The notes beneath the pieces are model-generated. The model saw nothing but the letters and a program-made list of their open reading frames with translations, did no database searches and was not told the origin of the DNA. A stretch of DNA of 64,000 bases from Gemmatimonadota bacterium (lineage in GTDB: Bacteria; Gemmatimonadota; Gemmatimonadetes; Longimicrobiales; Gaopeijiaceae), in contig JAXHMG010000002.1 in assembly GCA_034521595.1 (NCBI GenBank), positions 160,001 through 224,000 on the forward strand, written 5' to 3'. The first letter of the stretch is position 1. Every line of letters starts with the position of its first letter. The translations under genes were made by a program, and so were the position numbers. This document shows positions 2,415 to 12,100 of this stretch, piece after piece.

Positions 2415-2810
2415 TCAGCCCTGTACGGCCCGGTCGGTTCCTTCCGCACGCTCGAACACGCCGGAAAGCACCAACGCCCCACCGGCGAGCGCCGTGTCCT
2501 TGAGCATGCTGCTCATGGAGGCCTGCATCGCCGCCGGGTCCTGCGCGTTCATCACGCCCACGAGGTGGATGGTCAAGGCGAAGATGAGAAGCATGAGCCC
2601 CAGGAGACGCGTCGCGAGGACCGCATGCTTTCCGACGCCGATGCTCACCGCGGCGGCGAGAAGCGCGAGTCCGGTCAGGTAGATCCAGAATACACCTCCA
2701 GGGATCGGCACCATCCCCGCCATCGAGCTCGCGTTCATGAAGTGGAACAGACCGAAAATGGCCATGGGAATGGCGTACAGGTATCGGCCTACCGTGGGCA
2801 ATGCGGACAT
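2415..2810 (-). CDS. DoxX-family membrane protein
   Basis: MSALPTVGRYLYAIPMAIFGLFHF...LTIHL...LKDTALAGGAL; four hydrophobic helices; AGGAG SD. Confidence 0.8.
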   Translation of the reverse strand: MSALPTVGRYLYAIPMAIFGLFHFMNASSMAGMVPIPGGVFWIYLTGLALLAAAVSIGVGKHAVLATRLLGLMLLIFALTIHLVGVMNAQDPAAMQASMSSMLKDTALAGGALVLSGVFERAEGTDRAVQG

Positions 2811-3057: not shown

Positions 3058-3534
3058 TCAGTTCACGTGCACGTGCACCGCCGTCGTCTCGAAATCGGCA
3101 TGCCCGCTGCCGACGTCGCCGTGCATGAGCTTGAACACGGCGTCGGTCTCGCCCGCGGCCAAGCCGTGGAGGTGCCCGCCGAACTCTCCGGGCGTGTCCT
3201 GCTCCCACTCCGCGATCGTCTCGTCCCCGATGTCGACCTCGAGGTAAGTATCGTCCTCGGGCGACACCTGGGTCCCGTCGTGATCGACGAAGCGCACGGT
3301 GATGTGTGCCGTCTCCTGGCCTTCCCCCACATCGAGCTCACCGGTCCAGGTGCGGCTGTCACCGTCGAACGAGGCGAGGACCTGCCCGTTCAGAACGAGC
3401 TCGACCCCTTCCACATCCTCTTCATGATCGTCGTCATCGATGCCGACGGGGTCGTCGCTGCACGCCCCGAGTCCTACCGCTCCCGCTACGGCCAGAGCCA
3501 ACAGCGGGGTCTTGTACGCATGCTTGGTCTTCAA
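3058..3534 (-). CDS. His/Asp-rich lipoprotein, putative metal-binding partner of the TonB receptor
   Basis: TTG start with AGAGGAG SD; lipobox LGAC; DDDDHEED, GHLHG, MHG..GHAD and VHVHV motifs. Confidence 0.75.
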   Translation of the reverse strand: MKTKHAYKTPLLALAVAGAVGLGACSDDPVGIDDDDHEEDVEGVELVLNGQVLASFDGDSRTWTGELDVGEGQETAHITVRFVDHDGTQVSPEDDTYLEVDIGDETIAEWEQDTPGEFGGHLHGLAAGETDAVFKLMHGDVGSGHADFETTAVHVHVN

Positions 3535-3604
3535 CGTTGTTCTCCTCTTCGATGGATTCGGGCCGCCTCCGGAGGGGTCGCGTCGAGCCCCGGGTGGCCA
3601 CGGT

Positions 3605-5899
3605 TCAGAACACGACGCGATACGTGATGCTCAGCCCTCTCCCGGCCTCCGGCATGATCTCCTTCACCCGGGAGAGGTGGTTGCGGTACTCCGCGTCGGT
3701 GACGTTGTCGGCGCTAACGGTGAGAACGTGCAGACGGCCCGACACCGTCAGCCGCAGCCCGGCGGACGCGTCGAAGACCGCGTAACCCGGTGTGACCGTC
3801 TCGAACTCGCCGATCCGATCCTGGCGCGCCGCCAGATTCGTTTCTCCGCGAACGAACCAGTCCGGCCGGTCGTACTCGAGGCCGAGGGTTCCCTGCAGCG
3901 GTGGGATCAGCGGGAGCGGTGCGTCCTCTTCGTCGCGCGTGCCTTCCACGTAGGAAGCGGTGCCGTGCAGCGTGAGGTCGCCGACGGCATTCCAATCGAC
4001 CCCGCCTTCGAACCCGAGCAGTAAGGCATCGTCTCCCCGGAACTGGTAGATCGGAAGATTGGTCCGGCTCGTGTCGGCGGTCTCGGCAGGGTAGATGTAG
4101 CCCGAGATGTCGTTCCTGAAGCCGGTCAGCTCGGCCGACACGTCCTCTCGCTCCAGGCGCACGAATACGTCCAACCCCGTGCCGACCTCGTTCTCGAGCG
4201 AAGGATTCCCGACCTCGAACGCGTAGGCCGCCAGGTGCGGTCCCTCGGAGTAGAGCTCGTTCACGTCCGGCGTGCGGAAGGCGCGCGCCATGCTCGTGCC
4301 TACCGTGAAGCCCCCGGCGAGGTTGTACAACACCCCCAAGGAGCCCGATGCCGCGTGGAACGTCCGCTCCCGGATCGCCCCGATGGGCGAATCGGGATCC
4401 GGCTCACGCGGCTCCGCGCGCGCCCAGTCGTAGCGGAGCCCGGCTTCGATGCGGAGCGGCTCGAGATCGATCTCCTCGAAAACGTATGCGGCGAGAGTGC
4501 TCCGCTTCGTATCCGGCGTGGACAGCCCCCCCGCGAAGTTGAAATCCTCCATCGACGCGCGCGCACCCACGGCACCGTTCGAAAACGGACCCCACACCTC
4601 GTGCCGGGCCAGAACGTCGGCGCTGGTCATCTGGCGCTTGAAAAAGGTTCCGATGATGTCCGGCGGCTCGATCTCGAGGTGGCGATACCACGTGTACTGG
4701 CCGTCGAGCTCGAGCGAGCGGAACGGCCCCCACTCACCTTCCACGCGGCCGTCCACCTTCGTGGCCATCCGCTCCATCTCGATGGTCACCCCTTCCTCGT
4801 GGCCGCCCACGAAACCCCCGGGGATGCCGTAGTCATTCTTGTGCGCCCGGAACGCGGCACCGAAGTGTCCGTTCTCCTCGACCCAGGCAGCCCCGGCCCC
4901 CGCGTTCCAGCTATTCGTTCCGGTATTCTCGAGCGTCCCTACCGGCGTCTGTAGATCCCCCGAAGAGCGTCCCCCGACCTCGACCCGCACCGGGATCCGA
5001 TCCGTTACGGCGGCACGCATGTGTCCGTTTCCCCCGAGCGTTCCGGTGACCGTTTGACCCTGAAGGGTCACGGCACCCGTCGGATGGTGAGGCACGTCGG
5101 AAGGCACCTCGTCGCGGATGACGTTGATGACGCCGCCGAGCGCGTTACTCCCGTAGAGGATGGCCGCCGGCCCCCGGACGACCTCGATCCTGCGAGCGGA
5201 CGACGGATCGAGCGCCGAGGCGTGGTCCGATCCCGTGCTGGACATGTCGCCGCTCCGGGATCCGTCCTCGAGCATGAGGACACGATCGCCGCTCAGGCCC
5301 CGGATGACCGGCTGGGCCGTCGCCGGTCCCATGCCCGTGACCGACACGCCGGGCTCGGACGACAGCGTCGCGGCCACCGTGCCCTCCAGGCGTGCCTGCA
5401 GGTCCTGGCCGCTCAAGACGTTCACGGGGCGTAAGGCTTCGGACGCGTCCCGCTCGCTCAACGAACCGGTCACCACCAACCCACCCACATCGAGCGGGGA
5501 CGATTCCAGCTCGATGACCACGACCGTGCCCTCGTCTCCCGTCGTGACGTCCACGGTCCGAGTTCGGTAGCCGAGCCGTTCCACCCTCAGGGTGTGCTGC
5601 CCTGCTGGCAAACCTCCAATGTGGAAGGAGCCGTCTCCGTGCGTGGTGGCCGCGGGACGAGCGCCGACGACCGACACCAGGACGCCGGCCAGCGGGTTCC
5701 CGGTGTCCGCGTCCCGGACCACGCCTTCGATCTCGCCCTCGTGCTCGGGGGCTTGTGCACTCGTGTCGACCGCCGAGACGAGCCCGACGAAAAGCACGGG
5801 CCCAACGAAGGACAGGCACGTGCGGACGAAAGTCTGCAGATGGGGAATAGTCATGATACCACAGGGCGGAGGTTGCTCCGATGCCACGGCCTCCGACAC
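3605..5899 (-). CDS. TonB-dependent receptor, ZnuD-like (divalent-metal uptake)
   Basis: N-terminal carboxypeptidase-regulatory-like domain; plug motifs QPVIRGL and RIEVVRGPAAILYGSNALGGVIN; GGHEEG, ELYSEGPH, GNPSLENE, YRNHLS; C-terminal Phe. Start is GTG 5899 or ATG 5854. Confidence 0.9.
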   Translation of the reverse strand: MSEAVASEQPPPCGIMTIPHLQTFVRTCLSFVGPVLFVGLVSAVDTSAQAPEHEGEIEGVVRDADTGNPLAGVLVSVVGARPAATTHGDGSFHIGGLPAGQHTLRVERLGYRTRTVDVTTGDEGTVVVIELESSPLDVGGLVVTGSLSERDASEALRPVNVLSGQDLQARLEGTVAATLSSEPGVSVTGMGPATAQPVIRGLSGDRVLMLEDGSRSGDMSSTGSDHASALDPSSARRIEVVRGPAAILYGSNALGGVINVIRDEVPSDVPHHPTGAVTLQGQTVTGTLGGNGHMRAAVTDRIPVRVEVGGRSSGDLQTPVGTLENTGTNSWNAGAGAAWVEENGHFGAAFRAHKNDYGIPGGFVGGHEEGVTIEMERMATKVDGRVEGEWGPFRSLELDGQYTWYRHLEIEPPDIIGTFFKRQMTSADVLARHEVWGPFSNGAVGARASMEDFNFAGGLSTPDTKRSTLAAYVFEEIDLEPLRIEAGLRYDWARAEPREPDPDSPIGAIRERTFHAASGSLGVLYNLAGGFTVGTSMARAFRTPDVNELYSEGPHLAAYAFEVGNPSLENEVGTGLDVFVRLEREDVSAELTGFRNDISGYIYPAETADTSRTNLPIYQFRGDDALLLGFEGGVDWNAVGDLTLHGTASYVEGTRDEEDAPLPLIPPLQGTLGLEYDRPDWFVRGETNLAARQDRIGEFETVTPGYAVFDASAGLRLTVSGRLHVLTVSADNVTDAEYRNHLSRVKEIMPEAGRGLSITYRVVF

Positions 5900-6013
5900 G
5901 GCTCACACTCCGAATAGAGTGCGACGCCTGGCCGGGACCCGACCGGCCGCAGAGCGGCCGGACATCGGGACCAATTGAAAGGAGCTGTCGGGCGGACGCC
6001 CGCAGCGGGTGTG

Positions 6014-6382
6014 TTATCGGGCGGGAGGCGCCCGGGGGCCGGATGAGCCCTTCAGGACCGGCTCGACGACGTCGGCGGCATCCACCACCCGAATACCGGG
6101 CAGCAGCCGCGGTACCGCGTCCGCCTCGACATGGACGGCCGGCCGGGCCGGGGTCGCCAGCGCAGTGGTCCGGACGAGCTGACAGAAGGCGTGATCGTGG
6201 TGCGGGGTGCAGTCGTCACGTCCTTCGGACTCCACGTGCACGGGCGTGCCGAGCTGCTCCACGTCCAACTGTCCGTCGGCCGCGGGAAGCGCGACGGCTC
6301 CCGTGAGATGGAAGAGCGCCAGAACGAGCGCGCCGAGGCGGCGCGCGAGCCGACGTTCGTTCGGAAGGATCCTGGAGTCCAT
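6014..6382 (-). CDS. DUF2946/CruR-like upstream leader protein with C-terminal RAPP arrest motif
   Basis: Signal/TM segment, central HVESEGRDDCTPHHDHAFCQ, C-terminus GPRAPPAR*; directly upstream of the receptor. Confidence 0.75.
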   Translation of the reverse strand: MDSRILPNERRLARRLGALVLALFHLTGAVALPAADGQLDVEQLGTPVHVESEGRDDCTPHHDHAFCQLVRTTALATPARPAVHVEADAVPRLLPGIRVVDAADVVEPVLKGSSGPRAPPAR

Positions 6383-6435
6383 GCCTTCCTGCTACAGAAA
6401 GCGGCTCAGGATGGTTCCCTACCCTGGGCTCCCCG

Positions 6436-7467
6436 TCAATCGATCTCGAACACCGCATCGTCGACGAGCTCGAGGTACGAAAGCGACGCGTTCGCCCGGT
6501 CCACGTTGCACGAGTGATAGCGGATCGTGCCCTGCACCTCGATCTCGTCGTACGGCTCCGTGCCGGAGAAGCCCCCCACCAACATCCCGTCGATCGAGCC
6601 CCTCACGCGGTCGTCGACCCAACCGGCCAGAACGATGCCCTCCCAGGAGAAGCTCGGAACCGCTCGAAACTCCTCCGTGACGATCAGCACGCCCCGCCCG
6701 CTCCAGGACGGATTGAGCATCGGACTCCCGTTCAGCCGGACGACCGGGAACGAGTCCGCCGGTAGCGTGGAAAAGGGCGGGCGCACATCCTCGAAGTCCA
6801 CCGGGAACGACGGGTCCGTCAGGATGTCCCAACGGAGCGCCACCTGGTTCATGAACTGGGCGTAGCCGCCCGGCCAGAGCTCGTATTCGGGGCTCCCCTC
6901 CAGCGTCCCGTCCTCCGCCACCCCTTCGCGCGCGATCGCACCGGTGATACTCGGCTGGGCACCACCGGGGCACACCGCCCCACCCGCGTCGTCCCCCGAG
7001 ACCTCCGCCGGATTCTCCACGCTGATGTCGGCCACGCTGAGCACCAGGGCACCGTGCAACGGCAGCGGGCGCCTCCGGTGGTACGCGTATGCACCCACGA
7101 CCCGCCGGGAGGGGCTGCCTTGCGCCAGCGGATCCGGGACGGTGGCGGCCGAACGGACGAAGTACATGTGCGTGAATTCGTCCACCTCCGCGACCCGTCT
7201 CGCGCTGACCGCCGCTTCGCCGTTCCCCATCGCGTACCGAGCCGAGTCCGCGACCACCCCGAGCTGCTCCGACACGAAGCGGTTGAGTCCGCCGCGCGCG
7301 ATCGCCAGCGCCTCCTCGCTCTCGCCCGAGTGCCGCGCCATGCGCGACTCGGCGCTGACCACCAGGTAGCCGGCGCCGCTCGCCATGGCGATCGCGAAGA
7401 GCATGAGCACCACCAGCGCCAGCACGAAGCCGCCCTCCCGCTCCCGCCCCCCCACCGGCGGCGTCAC
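6436..7467 (-). CDS. PilX-like minor pilin
   Basis: Prepilin-like REGG-FVLALVVLML without Glu5; GTG start overlaps the upstream TGA. Confidence 0.75.
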   Translation of the reverse strand: MTPPVGGREREGGFVLALVVLMLFAIAMASGAGYLVVSAESRMARHSGESEEALAIARGGLNRFVSEQLGVVADSARYAMGNGEAAVSARRVAEVDEFTHMYFVRSAATVPDPLAQGSPSRRVVGAYAYHRRRPLPLHGALVLSVADISVENPAEVSGDDAGGAVCPGGAQPSITGAIAREGVAEDGTLEGSPEYELWPGGYAQFMNQVALRWDILTDPSFPVDFEDVRPPFSTLPADSFPVVRLNGSPMLNPSWSGRGVLIVTEEFRAVPSFSWEGIVLAGWVDDRVRGSIDGMLVGGFSGTEPYDEIEVQGTIRYHSCNVDRANASLSYLELVDDAVFEID

Positions 7468-8327
7468 GGCGCGTTCCTCAAGAGCAGGTTCGTGCTCCAC
7501 CCGAACGTGACGTCCTCTTCCTCGGCGCTTTCGGACAGCCGGCGGGCGTCGAGCTGCAGCTGCACCGCGTCGATGTCGTCCAGATCGCCCTCCGGGATCG
7601 TGTCCCGGTAACTCGACTCCCCGCTCAGGCGGTACCCGAAGCGTGCCGTCGAATCGATTCCGGAAGCGAACTCGACCGGATCCTCCAAGTACGGCTGCCT
7701 GAACAGCGCGAGCATGGGAGGCTCGAGATCGGAAGGCTCGATCGTGAACGTCGTCTCGCGGAACAGCATGACGAGCTCGCCGACGTCCGGCGCATCCGAG
7801 CCCAGCGCCAGGGCCAGGAGCCTCAGAGTATGGAAATCCTCGGACGCATCCGTCGTGTCGGCCGCGGTCGCGGTGGCACAACGCGCCGCGCTGGCGCTGC
7901 TGCCCCCGTCCATGATGAACCACGGCCACAGCTGGTACTCCCAGGCGCCGTCCGCGGGATCGTGAGCCGCCACCCCGGCGATCTCCTCCGTGGCCATGCG
8001 GGCCGCGCCCCCGTCGAAGTGCACGTCCCGGTCGGCCAGGAATCCGCTGCCCCGCTCGCAGACGCTCCCGACGGCGACGGGTGAGCGCACGGTGAGCGTT
8101 CGCGCACCCGCCACGACGATGCCCCCTCTCATGGAGGAGCGCAGCTCCCGCGAGATGAGGTCGGTGGCCGAGCGCACGTTGTCGTGCGCGGCCGCCCGAA
8201 GAACCTGGTTCGCCTGGTATCTGTTCTGCACCAGGAACGTCGTGCTGACCAGGATCAGGACGAGGGAGGAGAGCACGAGCGCAATGAGCGCTTCGACCAG
8301 AGTGAACCCGTGGATCCTGTTCACCAC
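7464..8327 (-). CDS. PilW-like minor pilin
   Basis: G-FTLVEALIAL type IV prepilin N-methylation motif. Confidence 0.85.
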   Translation of the reverse strand: MVNRIHGFTLVEALIALVLSSLVLILVSTTFLVQNRYQANQVLRAAAHDNVRSATDLISRELRSSMRGGIVVAGARTLTVRSPVAVGSVCERGSGFLADRDVHFDGGAARMATEEIAGVAAHDPADGAWEYQLWPWFIMDGGSSASAARCATATAADTTDASEDFHTLRLLALALGSDAPDVGELVMLFRETTFTIEPSDLEPPMLALFRQPYLEDPVEFASGIDSTARFGYRLSGESSYRDTIPEGDLDDIDAVQLQLDARRLSESAEEEDVTFGWSTNLLLRNAP

Positions 8328-8719
8328 GCCTCCGCCACGTACGACGTGGTCCTGAAGGTGGGACCGTCACCTCCGACGGGTGTGATCTCGATCTCCACGC
8401 GCGCGAGGAGCGGCGTGACCCGGGTGAGCGTCACGCTCCGCTCGTAGGCGAGCCCCATGATCGTGAGCGTGTCCGCGTCGGCGCCCATCGTCAGCGAAGC
8501 GGACGGCTGGGCGTCGAGCGAGTCCAGACGCTCGGCCGCGCGCACCGCGAGCTCCGACCTGATCCCCGCATAGCGCATCTGCGTACCCGTCGCGGTGCTC
8601 AAGCGAACCACCATGAGCACGCCGACCGAGAAGATGACGAAAGCGCCGATGACCTCGATGAGAGTGAACCCTTCCCGTGCGAGCGCGGCGCGCCGCGAAA
8701 CACCCCGGTCAACCTTCAC
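8321..8719 (-). CDS. PilV-like minor pilin
   Basis: EG-FTLIEVIGAFVIFSVG; GTGA overlap with the upstream gene. Confidence 0.85.
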   Translation of the reverse strand: MKVDRGVSRRAALAREGFTLIEVIGAFVIFSVGVLMVVRLSTATGTQMRYAGIRSELAVRAAERLDSLDAQPSASLTMGADADTLTIMGLAYERSVTLTRVTPLLARVEIEITPVGGDGPTFRTTSYVAEAW

Positions 8720-9195
8720 GACGCCCCGATTCGCGAAGCCCCGAGCCCGTTGAACGAGACCGCGTACGACCACTCGCCCGACCGGAAGGTCGCCACGCCG
8801 AGCGTTCCCGGCGCGCCCGAGAGGTCCGCGAAACCCCGCCGGTCGAACACCAGGGAGTCGCCGTCGAGATCCAGCTCGATATCCGACAGGTCGACCCCGT
8901 CCGAGTTCGAGAACCGGCGCCGTACGATCTCGGTGGTCCCGTCCAGGGTCACGATCTCGTACTCACGCGCGCCCTCATCGAACCGCAGCACGACGGGCTC
9001 CCGCGTCCGCACGGCGAAGCCGCGGGCCCGGGTCAGATCCTGGGCGAAGACCTGGGCCGCCCGTCGAACCGTGGTTCTACCGAAGTAACGTCCCACCGTG
9101 AGACCCGCGTAACCCAACATGACCGCGCTCAGCGTGAGCACCACGAGCAGCTCGATCAAGGTGAAGCCGTCGCGGAAGCCCCGTCGTCCGGTCAT
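8716..9195 (-). CDS. FimT/GspH-like minor pilin
   Basis: DG-FTLIELLVVL; ARGFAVRTREPV and LVFDRRG motifs; ATGA overlap with the gdh stop. Confidence 0.85.
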   Translation of the reverse strand: MTGRRGFRDGFTLIELLVVLTLSAVMLGYAGLTVGRYFGRTTVRRAAQVFAQDLTRARGFAVRTREPVVLRFDEGAREYEIVTLDGTTEIVRRRFSNSDGVDLSDIELDLDGDSLVFDRRGFADLSGAPGTLGVATFRSGEWSYAVSFNGLGASRIGAS

Positions 9196-12100
9196 GCCCG
9201 GCGATCCGCCAGGGCCGCGAGCTCCCGCGCCACGACGGAGACCGCCGCGAATCCGACGGCGCTCTCGGCCTTCAGATCCGCCACGACCCCGCGGAATCGC
9301 TCGATCTCGCGAGCGCGCGTCCGGAGGAGCCGGTCGATCGCCACGGAGACGTCGTCCGTGGAACCGGTACGCCCGAGCACGTGCACCACCAACTTCCGGT
9401 GGGCGCGCGACAGGTCCTCGGAAAGGGCTTGGGCCGCCCGGTGCTCCCACTGATCGTCACCGACCGACGCGAAGGCCGACCGACGCAACCAGGGAATCTC
9501 GAACAGCTCGGAGGTCCGGTAATACGCATGCGCGGTCGCCACGGGATCGGATTCCGTATCCCGGGCGATATCGAGCACCTCCAGGAGCTGGTCGAGGAAG
9601 CGCAGCGTGATGAGGCGCCGTGAGAAGACTTCGTCCGCGCCCACCTTGCGGATCTCTTCCACCCTCGCCTCGAAGAGGGTTCGCTCCTCACCGGTGACGA
9701 ACGACCCGAAATTGTCCCGCAGCACGGCCAATCCCGGCACGCTCTCCGCCACGACCGTCGCGGGGGAAGTCTCCGGCTCCACGTTCTGGAGCACCCACCG
9801 AGTGGTCCGCTCCAGCACGCGCTGGAGACCCAGGATCCAGCGATAAGCGGCCCGGGTGTTGATCCGGTCCTGCTGCTCGGCGATCTGGGCCACGAGGGCA
9901 CGGTGATCGGCAAGCCGGGAGGCGACCAGCCAGGCACGGGCGACTTCTTCGACCCGCGAGCCCGTGTCACGGGCCACCCGCGTGATGAAGGTCGCGCCCA
10001 TCACGTCGACCAGATCGTTCGTGAGCTGACTGGCGATGATCTCGCGCCTCAGTCGATGCCCCTCGAGGCGCTCCCGCCCCGCGGCGGCGATGGCGGCCGA
10101 CGGGAAGTAGCCGAGGAGGTAACTCTCGGTGACCGGGTCGTCCGGCAAACCACCAGCCAGCAAGCGCGTCTTCAGGGCGAGCTTCGCATAGGAGAGCAAC
10201 ACGCAGAGCTCCGGACGCACCAGCGTTCTGCCTCCTTCCCGTCGCTCGCCCAAAACGTCGAGCGACGGAAGTCCTTCACCGGCCCGATCGAGCTCGCCCG
10301 TCTTCTCGAGCGCGAACATCAGGTCCCGGAAATCGTCGAAGCTCTCCCGCACCCGCTGCTCGTCGAGCGACACCGCGAGGCTCTGGCTCCGGTTGTCCTC
10401 GAGGACCAGATGGGCGATCGACTCGGTCAGCTCCTCCAGGAGCTCATTGCGCTCGTCCACCGACATGCGACCCTCCGCGACGGTCGGCTGCAGGAGGATC
10501 TTGAGGTTGACCTCGTGATCGGACATGTCGACGCCGCCCGAGTTGTCGAGCGCGTCCGTGTTGATGCGTCCACCCCGCAACGCGTACTCCACCCGAGCGG
10601 CCTGCGTGAAGCCCAGGTTACCCCCCTCTCCGACCACCTCGCACCGCAGCTCGGAGGCATCGATGCGGACCGAGTCGTTCGCGGGGTCCCCGGCATCGGC
10701 ATGGGTCTCCGAATCCGCCTTCACGTACGTCCCGATGCCTCCGTTCCAGAGGAGCTCCACCGGAGCCCTCAGCACGCACCGGATCAGCGTCTCGCCATCC
10801 ATCACTCCCGGCTCGTCGTCCGAAAGGCCGAGCGCCCGCCGTGCTTCGGGGGTGAGCTCGACCTCCTTCGCTCCCCGGGGAACCACCATCCCGCCGGGGC
10901 TGAGGAGGTCGGTGTCGTAATCTTCCCAGCTAGACCTCCCGAGCTCGAACACGCGCTTGCGCTCGGCGAAGGAAGTCGCGGGATCGGGGTCCGGATCGAT
11001 GAACACGTGCCGGTGGTCGAAGGCGGCCACCAAGCGAATCTGTTCGGACAGGAGCATCCCGTTGCCGAACACGTCGCCGCTCATGTCACCGATGCCCGCG
11101 ACCGTGAAGGGCTCCGTCTGGACATCCTTACCCTTCTCACGGAAGTGTCGCCTCACGCACTCCCACGCGCCGCGGGCGGTGATCCCCACCATCTTGTGGT
11201 CGTAGCCGTGCGACCCCCCGGAAGCGAACGCGTCATCGAGCCAGAAGCCGTATTCCGCGGCCACGGCGTTGGCGATGTCCGAGAAGGTGGCGGTCCCTTT
11301 ATCGGCCGCCACGACCAGATACGGGTCGGGAGGGTCGTACGCGACGATCCCTTCGGGCGTTACCGTGTCCCCTTGCACGTAGTTGTCCGTGATGTCGAGA
11401 AGGCCACGGATCAAGGTGCGGTACTGCCGCCGGCCCTCCTCCATGCGCGCGTCGGGCTCGGAGGGGACCCGGCGGGTGATGAAGCCTCCCTTCGAGCCCC
11501 CGGGAACGATCACCGCGTTCTTGACGACCTGTGTCCGCACCAGCCCGAGCACCTCGATCCGGAAATCGTCCGGGCGGTCGCTCCAGCGGATGCCGCCGCG
11601 GGCCACTCGCGCGCCGCGCAGATGCACTCCCTCCATCCGGGCCGAGTGGACCCATACCTCGTAGAGGAGGCTGGTCCTCCGTCCGAAGTCGAGCTCGTTG
11701 CTGTCGAACTTGAAGGAGACGTAGGGGGCGCCACCCGACCGCGCCTCGGGCCTCGCCCCACCGGTCCGATAGTAGTTCGTGCGCACGGTGGCGGAGATCA
11801 ACTCCGCCAGACGCCGAAGCGCTCGGTCGGCCGAGAGAAGCGCGACGCCCCGCAGCGACGCCTGAAAGGCCGCCCGGATGTCGGCCACGGCCCGGTCCCG
11901 CTCTTCCACCCCGAGGGAGCGTGACGGGTCGAAGCGGGTCTCGAAGAGCTCGAAGAGCTCCCGAGCGATGCCGGGGTGGGCTACCAGTGCGGAGGGCAGC
12001 GCCAGCCGGCTCGGGACCGCTCCGACCTGGAAGGCGAAGCCCGCGTATGCGCGGAGGGCGTCGACCTCCCTCCACCGCAGCCCGGCCGTGACGACGAGCG

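Follow-up and report, generated by a model that had tools for sequence, protein, structure and literature searches.

A RAPP-terminated leader upstream of a TonB-dependent receptor in Gemmatimonadota: a candidate metal-sensing arrest peptide remotely related to CruR and DUF2946

Does a small open reading frame (ORF) that ends in the tetrapeptide RAPP, ahead of a gene for a TonB-dependent receptor in a Gemmatimonadota bacterium (Longimicrobiales; Gaopeijiaceae), encode a nascent-chain metal sensor, and how is its sensor related to those already described? The ORF lies in a DNA stretch of 64,000 nucleotides (nt), positions 160,001 to 224,000 of contig JAXHMG010000002.1 (GenBank assembly GCA_034521595.1), which is referred to as the window and whose numbering is used for all positions given without a locus name. 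The leader ORF (6014..6382) encodes 122 amino acids (aa) on the minus strand, with the start codon ATG at 6382 and the stop codon TAA at 6016-6014, and its translation was identical to the sequence given in the original prediction. The signal-like N-terminus, the His/Cys cluster, the RAPP end and the distance to the receptor reported there were confirmed, with the strand given as minus and the gap from the leader stop as 114 nt (to the first receptor start, GTG 5899) or 159 nt (to ATG 5854).

Based on homology and motif conservation, the leader was classified as a candidate metal-sensing arrest peptide and a remote relative of CruR and the DUF2946 family. We consider it likely that the leader is a nascent-chain metal sensor of the CruR/CutF kind, in an extended sense of DUF2946, which would gate the receptor by ribosome arrest at RAPP. 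This reading was adopted because RAPP or RGPP stands at a fixed distance from the stop codon, its spacing from the sensor is fixed, the linker is variable, the gene order is conserved, and homology was detected between sequence profiles.

The leader gene and its conserved anatomy

The GC content of the leader at the three codon positions (0.82/0.50/0.81) was coding-like, with 0.69/0.50/0.84 in the receptor gene. A Shine-Dalgarno-like AGGAAGG (6384..6390, minus strand) was located one base 5' of the leader ATG, and AAGG(C/T)GG occupied the same spot in related loci, of which 30 were compared. By word-indexed search, 27 leader homologues with 50-81% identity were found, nearly all of exactly 122 aa, and the named ones were all from metagenome-assembled genomes of Gemmatimonadota. 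In the genome itself, 56 of 32,284 stop-to-stop frames of at least 60 aa terminated in R[AG]PP followed by one to four residues and the stop; just two of these combined a coding-like GC content at third codon positions with a hydrophobic segment, namely the leader ORF and a paralogous one that precedes a different TonB receptor. The leader ORF is a real gene and more than a chance frame, because of its 27 homologues of nearly uniform length, the invariant PRAPP and the presence of just two comparable frames genome-wide. A chance open frame in GC-rich DNA, to which the overlapping ORFs of 128-157 aa on the opposite strand of the same region might point, has practically no probability left and was refuted by protein-level homologues down to 25% identity, by conserved motifs, length and synteny, and by the coding-like codon-position GC. 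The DNA sequencing runs containing the locus were salt-pan and sediment metagenomes, with no RNA run among those listed.

Near the N-terminus, residues 12-35 (6278..6349, minus strand) comprise an Arg-rich n-region and a hydrophobic segment with a mean Kyte-Doolittle hydropathy of 2.21 over 15 residues, which may act as an export signal or as an N-in membrane anchor; R15 and L19 were conserved in a 28-sequence alignment of the family. The sensor at residues 47-71 (6170..6244, minus strand), delimited by positions invariant in the homologue alignments, reads P47-V-H49-V-E51-S-E-G-R-D-D-C58-T-P-H-H62-D-H64-A-F-C67-Q-L-V70-R71. It is followed by a linker, residues 72-115 (6038..6169, minus strand), whose length is nearly fixed and whose sequence is variable as judged by the alignment, the spacing and the AlphaFold2 model, and then by the RAPP arrest motif P116-R117-A118-P119-P120 (6023..6037, minus strand). 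The C-terminus, G-P-R117-A-P-P120-A-R-stop, leaves two residues between motif and stop. The AlphaFold2 model of the leader contained only helices at residues 7-44, with a predicted local distance difference test score (pLDDT) of 87-97, and 64-75, while the linker was coil with pLDDT 65-71, and no globular fold was present in it.

Conservation of RAPP and of the His and Cys residues had been proposed as a check on the original prediction, and it was evident in the alignment: PRAPP (P116-P120) as well as P47, H49, E51, S52, C58, H62, D63, H64, C67, Q68 and R71 were invariant in 28 of 28 sequences, and residues 80-112 were free in sequence and constant in length. A profile search of 1.84 billion representative sequences retrieved 233 clusters at E <= 0.001, of which 83 reached E <= 1e-10. 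Motifs were counted over the 148 representatives listed beyond two already known, among which 125 carried RAPP, 17 carried RGPP and six had neither within the last 16 residues; the strict pattern H-x-E...C...H-x-H...C was found in 100. Spacing was measurable in 158 of 206 pooled sequences, with 46-51 residues between C67 and the Arg of the motif (exactly 50 in 89 of the 158) and exactly two residues after the motif in 145. When the alignment was widened to 102 sequences, down to 25% identity, H62, R117, P119 and P120 remained invariant, and D36, H49, E51, C58, C67, R71 and A118 were retained in at least 90%. In the 30 related loci, the C-terminal core was RAPP in 19, RGPP in ten and RASP in one; in one locus (L020) RAPP was followed by a 12-residue extension. 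The family profile matched 68 of 401 sampled genomes of the phylum, at 69 places, and 44 of the 69 genomes of the bacterium's own family. The fixed motif position, the fixed distance from sensor to RAPP, the variable linker and the conserved synteny supported, at the level of sequence, an anatomy like that of an arrest peptide.

The downstream cassette and the ancestry of the sensor

The gene downstream of the leader (3605..5899, minus strand) encodes a TonB-dependent receptor of 764 aa from GTG 5899, with CarboxypepD_reg, Plug and barrel domains assigned by Pfam. The alternative start, ATG 5854, begins a signal-peptide-like stretch; the mature receptor has no cysteine, Cys being confined to the first 30 positions of the translation. 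An orthologous receptor, with 52-63% identity over the compared part, was found directly downstream on the same strand in 28 of the 30 related loci, and in the two exceptions, L026 (core PRASP) and L028 (core SRAPP; short contig), a homologue of the third cassette gene, a lipoprotein, stood downstream instead. Among ten larger loci, the order leader-receptor-lipoprotein was observed in seven, leader-lipoprotein-receptor in one and leader-lipoprotein only in one, and the tenth, a distant locus, contained a leader with a receptor just 33% identical to that of the window. The lipoprotein (3058..3534, minus strand) is His-rich and 158 aa long. In the alignment of its family H37, H77, M137-H138 and H145 were invariant and H85, H121 and H123 nearly so; of its 404 homologues, 120 were listed, and these had neither Pfam domains nor informative names. 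AlphaFold2 predicted an Ig-like beta-sandwich (pLDDT 84), for which Foldseek returned only generic Ig-like, S-layer and Rib domains, so that no function was obtained from the fold.

The prototype of DUF2946 (PF11162) is CruR (Bp2923) of Bordetella pertussis (Roy et al. 2022, PMC9426467). According to that study, leaders of the family head operons of TonB transporters, RAPP of CruR is needed for expression of the downstream transporter, and copper bound through CxxC relieves the arrest and allows Rho-dependent termination in an intergenic region of 162 nt; C93 of CruR lies 46 residues from R139 (PMC9426467). The window leader resembles CruR in being a small first gene of its operon with a hydrophobic N-terminus (a candidate export signal), in having a Cys sensor about 46-50 residues from a C-terminal RAPP with two to three residues from motif to stop, in the long intergenic region before a TonB-dependent transporter, and in the absence of a predicted stable fold. 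It differs in that it is below Pfam detection, has a single Cys (C67-Q-L-V70) in place of CxxC, and belongs to a family with invariant H49, E51, C58 and H62. The third gene of the window cassette encodes the His-rich lipoprotein, whereas that of CruR encodes a PepSY_TM-type membrane protein. The phylum is also different, and arrest, metal and Rho dependence would be carried over to the window leader by analogy only.

In the 401 genomes of the phylum, the Pfam DUF2946 model (gathering cut-off 23.7 bits) had matches in 30, of which 13 were above the cut-off, and these matches never coincided with any of the 69 places of the leader family. Profile-profile comparison by hhalign of the leader family with 24 DUF2946 matches of the same phylum gave a probability of 98% (E 2.5e-13, 120 columns). 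The probability was 97.9% against only the 12 DUF2946 matches above the cut-off, and 91.9% (E 6.9e-7) for the core alone, when the first 35 residues and the RAPP tail were cut from both sides. As judged from these profiles, the leader family and the DUF2946-type leaders are of remote but significant common ancestry. Together with the conserved RAPP/RGPP, the spacing and the synteny, this upheld at the sequence level the earlier proposal of an arrest-type upstream ORF (uORF) of the CruR/DUF2946 kind at the head of a TonB operon.

The register of C67 against CxxC was ambiguous between the hhalign comparisons. Lower-scoring, transitional members of the family have H-D-x-x-x-C-Q-L-C-R where the window leader has H62-D-H-A-F-C67-Q-L-V70-R71. 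The distance from V70 to R117 is 47 residues, and 44-47 residues separate the second Cys from Arg in the DUF2946 set of the phylum; C67 itself is 50 residues from R117. Because the transitional sequences and the spacing agree, C67 is identified by sequence comparison as the leading Cys of the ancestral CxxC, whose other Cys was replaced by Val70. C58 is an older conserved upstream Cys and probably the counterpart of the third Cys that Roy et al. called "semiconserved". The original prediction had seen CxxC replaced by C-x8-C; the atypical sensor stood, but the replacement was differently made, with C67 derived from the old motif and C58 preceding it.

Sensor and receptor were compared in fourteen lower-scoring genome matches. 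Four leaders with intact CxxC (L067, L076, L078 and one of the two in L079) preceded receptors 32-34% identical to that of the window; leaders with C-Q-[LI]-C-R (L083-L085) preceded receptors of 42-52% identity, and the lipoprotein was present in two of these cases; and leaders with C-x-x-[V/T/A]-R preceded receptors of 53-63% identity, plus the lipoprotein. On these alignments, the second Cys is placed as lost inside one leader-receptor-lipoprotein lineage, the deeper branches of which retain CxxC. Such a loss within one lineage counts against a simple story of a new sensor for a new receptor, and a retuning of the sensor is still compatible with it.

Proposed arrest mechanism and competing readings

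The following course of events, in which the stalling, the binding of a metal and which metal it is, the sign of the switch and the action of Rho are all inferred, is proposed for the leader as an arrest peptide. The ribosome would arrest once its P site holds the P119 codon (6028-6026) and its A site the P120 codon (6025-6023), a position taken over by analogy from CruR toeprinting: CruR arrests in vitro when codon three of RAPP occupies the P site and codon four the A site, as is also known for ApdA and ApdP, and RAPP and RGPP are the strongest and most context-independent arrest cores (PMC12992588). At such a stall the Cys/His/Glu cluster (residues 49-71) would be 48-70 residues from the peptidyl-transferase centre, and hence just outside the exit tunnel, or in the Sec translocon if the hydrophobic segment targets the chain. 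A metal ion bound by the cluster would alter the duration of the arrest, and the arrested or released ribosome at the end of the ORF would decide whether the structured, C-over-G RNA of 114-159 nt permits expression of receptor and lipoprotein. In the metal-free state the stall would persist, the transcript would be shielded from Rho and the receptor would be ON; with metal the stall would be released, Rho would terminate transcription and the receptor would be OFF. By analogy with CruR, we infer that this ON/OFF logic with a Rho read-out is the likeliest output.

The intergenic region (5900..6013, minus strand) was structured and richer in C than in G by folding and composition. The fold of 6040-5840 gave z = -3.76 against shuffled sequences, and hairpins were visible by folding in many of the related intergenic regions, which measured 52-194 nt with receptor start codons assigned by eye. 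On the sense strand, C/G exceeded 1 in 23 of 24 intergenic regions, with medians of 1.15 in the leader, 1.31 in the intergenic region (24 loci) and 0.86 in the 5' coding part of the receptor; the corresponding values of the window itself were 1.14, 1.12 and 0.90. A rho gene was present in the genome (637.5 bits, above the family cut-off), and no intrinsic terminator passed a scan of the intergenic region. The presence of rho, the intergenic lengths and the excess of C over G are compatible with a Rho mechanism like that of CruR.

Several observations weigh against an arrest leader of the DUF2946 kind with this output. The search against Pfam DUF2946, which had been suggested at the outset, returned no match for the window protein at E <= 1; the model touched six of 28 close homologues with a best E of 0.068, and matched 14 of the 148 representatives at E <= 0.01, one of them above the cut-off. 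The CxxC that defines DUF2946 is missing from the window protein, which has C67-Q-L-V70, and the conserved residues of the sensor could have a different role, for instance in a disulfide. On the RNA side, the C/G bias of the window's own intergenic region is small (1.12), and the receptor start codons of the related loci depend on assignment by eye. A GC-rich hairpin starts 8 nt 3' of the leader stop (5984..6006, minus strand; -17.5 kcal/mol, z = -2.43). As a conserved post-stop hairpin it was rejected: when 20 of the 30 loci were folded, the first 50 nt were no better than shuffles, with z <= -1.8 in three of 20 and z > 0 in six of 20. A pairing of the stall codons or stop with the receptor's ribosome-binding site was likewise rejected, since the pair-probability units were 0.03 and 0.52 where shuffles gave 1.7 and 5.1, and pairing of the stall region with the start region, tested as pairing between the two regions beat the shuffles in only three of 25 tests.

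A different read-out of the same stall is offered by CutF of Rhodobacter capsulatus. According to Ozturk et al. 2023 (PMC9973294) and bioRxiv 10.1101/2025.02.05.636593, CutF has CxxxC and precedes a multicopper oxidase, copper binding induces the stall, and a stem-loop right after the ORF masks the downstream ribosome-binding site until the stall unmasks it. The survey of CutF-like proteins in the same sources comprises 29 sequence clusters with sensors made of Cys, His or both, TonB-like genes are among the neighbours seen most often, and for some clusters nickel or cobalt is proposed as the metal sensed. The window leader passes the filters used for CutF-like proteins, being shorter than 150 aa, with PP in its final 15 residues, a putative N-terminal signal and a gene downstream that is read from the same strand and lies within 1000 nt. 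In a CutF-type output the intergenic RNA would be remodelled and the receptor ribosome-binding site exposed, and metal could induce the stall. The strong structure of the intergenic RNA (z = -3.76) speaks for this, as does a hairpin at 5900..5928 (minus strand), present in both the minimum free energy and the centroid structure, which holds in its 3' arm the GGAG that precedes GTG 5899 and whose relevance would depend on the receptor start used; CutF itself works in this way (PMC9973294). However, the masking hairpin is about 90 nt from the stall site, so that the ribosome could not melt it directly, pairing between the stall and start regions is absent here and in most relatives, the true receptor start is uncertain, and expression induced by metal would be an odd logic for an uptake receptor. 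The CutF-type read-out was therefore judged unlikely.

The leader could also be chiefly an exported small protein that binds metal or has a redox role, as an accessory or chaperone for the receptor and the lipoprotein, with RAPP as a feature of slow translation or export timing. Its putative N-terminal export signal and its Cys/His cluster are conserved, and its partners are the receptor and a His-rich lipoprotein. No confident fold was predicted past the two helices, though, and the 44-residue linker is free in sequence and fixed in length, and in 145 of 158 sequences exactly two residues separate motif and stop; the fixed linker length and motif position are hard to reconcile with a mature protein. 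The homologues CruR and CutF are, in addition, described as not detected as stable proteins (PMC9426467; PMC9973294). This makes a mainly exported protein a very improbable account of the leader.

A monitor of export or oxidative folding, responding to pulling force by Sec/YidC or to a periplasmic C58-C67 disulfide and not to metal, was given only a slight chance. The first RAPP arrest peptides to be discovered were secretion monitors, DsbA and thioredoxin genes can likewise be preceded by RAPP uORFs (PMC12992588), and the leader has two conserved Cys and a putative export signal. The genes downstream are a TonB receptor and a His-rich lipoprotein instead of Sec or Dsb components, the invariant H49, E51 and H62 would have no role in a disulfide, and the leader is homologous to metal-sensing leaders. 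Arrest at RAPP, modulated by metal, was kept as the preferred account.

Metal identity, neighbouring genes and significance

The original prediction had called the receptor "ZnuD-like", which did not hold. Against NCBIfam, the ZnuD model NF038289 scored 187.7 bits, far below its cut-off of 950, heme-receptor models scored 184.8 and copper receptors of the OprC type scored lower; the best sequence match in the PDB, ZnuD 4rdr, covered only receptor residues 160-361. Membership of the receptor in the ZnuD family was rejected on the score, its similarity to that of the heme models and the partial PDB match, and neither the NCBIfam nor the PDB sequence matches were decisive for the substrate.

Neighbouring genes across the related loci pointed to both Cu and Zn. 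Copper was suggested by a multicopper oxidase right after the lipoprotein in L068 and by a divergent CopC gene in L066. Zinc was suggested by L070, where a Fur-family regulator, a CobW GTPase of the COG0523 type and GTP cyclohydrolase I (FolE) stand beside the cassette (genes at 3514-4806, 6334-6705 and 10614-11204 of the locus), a neighbourhood that we take to be typical of zinc (Zur) regulons. The earlier idea of a sensor for a different metal was left in between, with neighbours of both kinds and with CxxC retained in the deeper branches of the lineage. In L068 (1882-4355, plus strand), a leader with the degenerate ending P-R-A-S-P was followed by a lipoprotein homologue and the multicopper oxidase, with no receptor within 7 kb; a rewiring of the cassette to a copper enzyme is possible, judging from this arrangement. 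In two loci of one genus, a dehydrogenase dependent on pyrroloquinoline quinone and a CarboxypepD_reg-domain protein were observed 3' of the lipoprotein on the same strand (L066, 4532-6547, minus strand; L069, 5432-7444, plus strand).

Somewhat doubtfully, a wider proposal can be made: the loss of the second Cys of CxxC together with the set H49/E51/C58/H62/C67 might have retuned an ancestral copper-type sensor to another metal, for example Zn(II), so that leader, receptor and His-rich lipoprotein would form an undescribed metal-piracy system of Gemmatimonadota with a co-translational switch, and a second, Cys-poorer leader-receptor pair would serve yet another ligand. The latter pair lies on contig C3 of the same genome. 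Its leader (L090, 1160-1579, plus strand) is an ORF of 139 aa with 12 His and a single Cys (in H-D-H-A-G-C), has the C-terminus P-R-A-P-P-R-I-S-stop, matched the family profile with 90% probability by hhalign, and is located 96 nt before another TonB receptor with CarboxypepD_reg, Plug and barrel, which is 27% identical to the window receptor. Contig C3 also contains a true Pfam DUF2946 match (L001, 1501-1848, minus strand; 29.3 bits), very His-rich, with one Cys, ending in H-P-P-R-A and lacking RAPP. It is directly upstream of an ORF read by eye as a TolC-like outer-membrane efflux protein, and the two presumably represent a CzcI-like arrangement.

As for the transcription of the leader, TTGACG at 6434..6439 (minus strand) is a candidate -35 element of its own promoter and shares bases with the stop codon of the pilin-cluster gene upstream. 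Most of the 30 related loci had a TTGAC hexamer about 70-85 nt 5' of the leader start; a consensus sigma-70 scan upstream of the leader found no full promoter, and inspection of the 30 upstream regions by eye, with no motif finder applied, revealed no AT-rich operator of the Fur/Zur type. In L004, L006, L009, L012, L018, L023 and L025, a sequence ending in GGTTCAAGTCCCTCTGGGCCCA directly precedes the promoter region of the leader. It looks like the 3' end of a putative transfer RNA (tRNA) gene, so that the cassette would often be placed right after a tRNA. The type IV pilin- or pseudopilin-like genes upstream in the window (6436-9450, minus strand; N-terminal methylation motif, GspH domain) end 53 nt before the leader, and 3' of the lipoprotein is an ORF of 131 aa (2415-2810, minus strand) with several hydrophobic segments and no Pfam match, whose synteny was not kept in the ten larger loci. 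By comparison of those loci, the pilin-like genes and this membrane-protein ORF are both outside the conserved unit.

Part of this picture is already in print. An enrichment of RAPP/RGPP uORFs ahead of TonB receptors, across Gram-negative bacteria as a whole, emerged from a survey of 52,895 GTDB genomes (Fujiwara et al., EMBO J 2025, PMC12992588); the variety of Cys/His sensors and DUF2946 leaders in TonB-transporter operons have likewise been published. The window leader is like the class of Fujiwara et al. in having RAPP/RGPP near the C-terminus of a small, putatively exported protein upstream of a TonB receptor. Their survey sorts by motif and downstream annotation, and its text contains no description of the sensor family of the window leader, the lipoprotein partner or the loss of CxxC. 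The word "Gemmatimonad" is absent from the text and nine of the ten supplements of PMC12992588, its larger tables being a place where the group may still be listed; Gemmatimonadota are similarly not named in the text or three small supplements of the CutF survey, and may be listed in its large File S1. The suggestion that the leader was undescribed thus holds for the subfamily and not for the general class. What is new is a subfamily that escapes detection by Pfam and comprises more than 200 clusters, the loss of a CxxC Cys within a conserved cassette, the His-rich lipoprotein partner and the second paralogous leader-receptor pair.

To our knowledge, nascent-chain metal sensing is proven for only CruR and CutF, both of which respond to copper. 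Since the principle and the association with TonB receptors have been published, the gain of this work lies in breadth and in a good test case and not in a new mechanism. About 230 sequence clusters without Pfam annotation are flagged, together with a widespread His-rich lipoprotein partner, and the natural series from CxxC through C-Q-L-C-R to C-Q-L-V-R within one cassette would allow a direct test of the residues that set metal specificity and arrest release.

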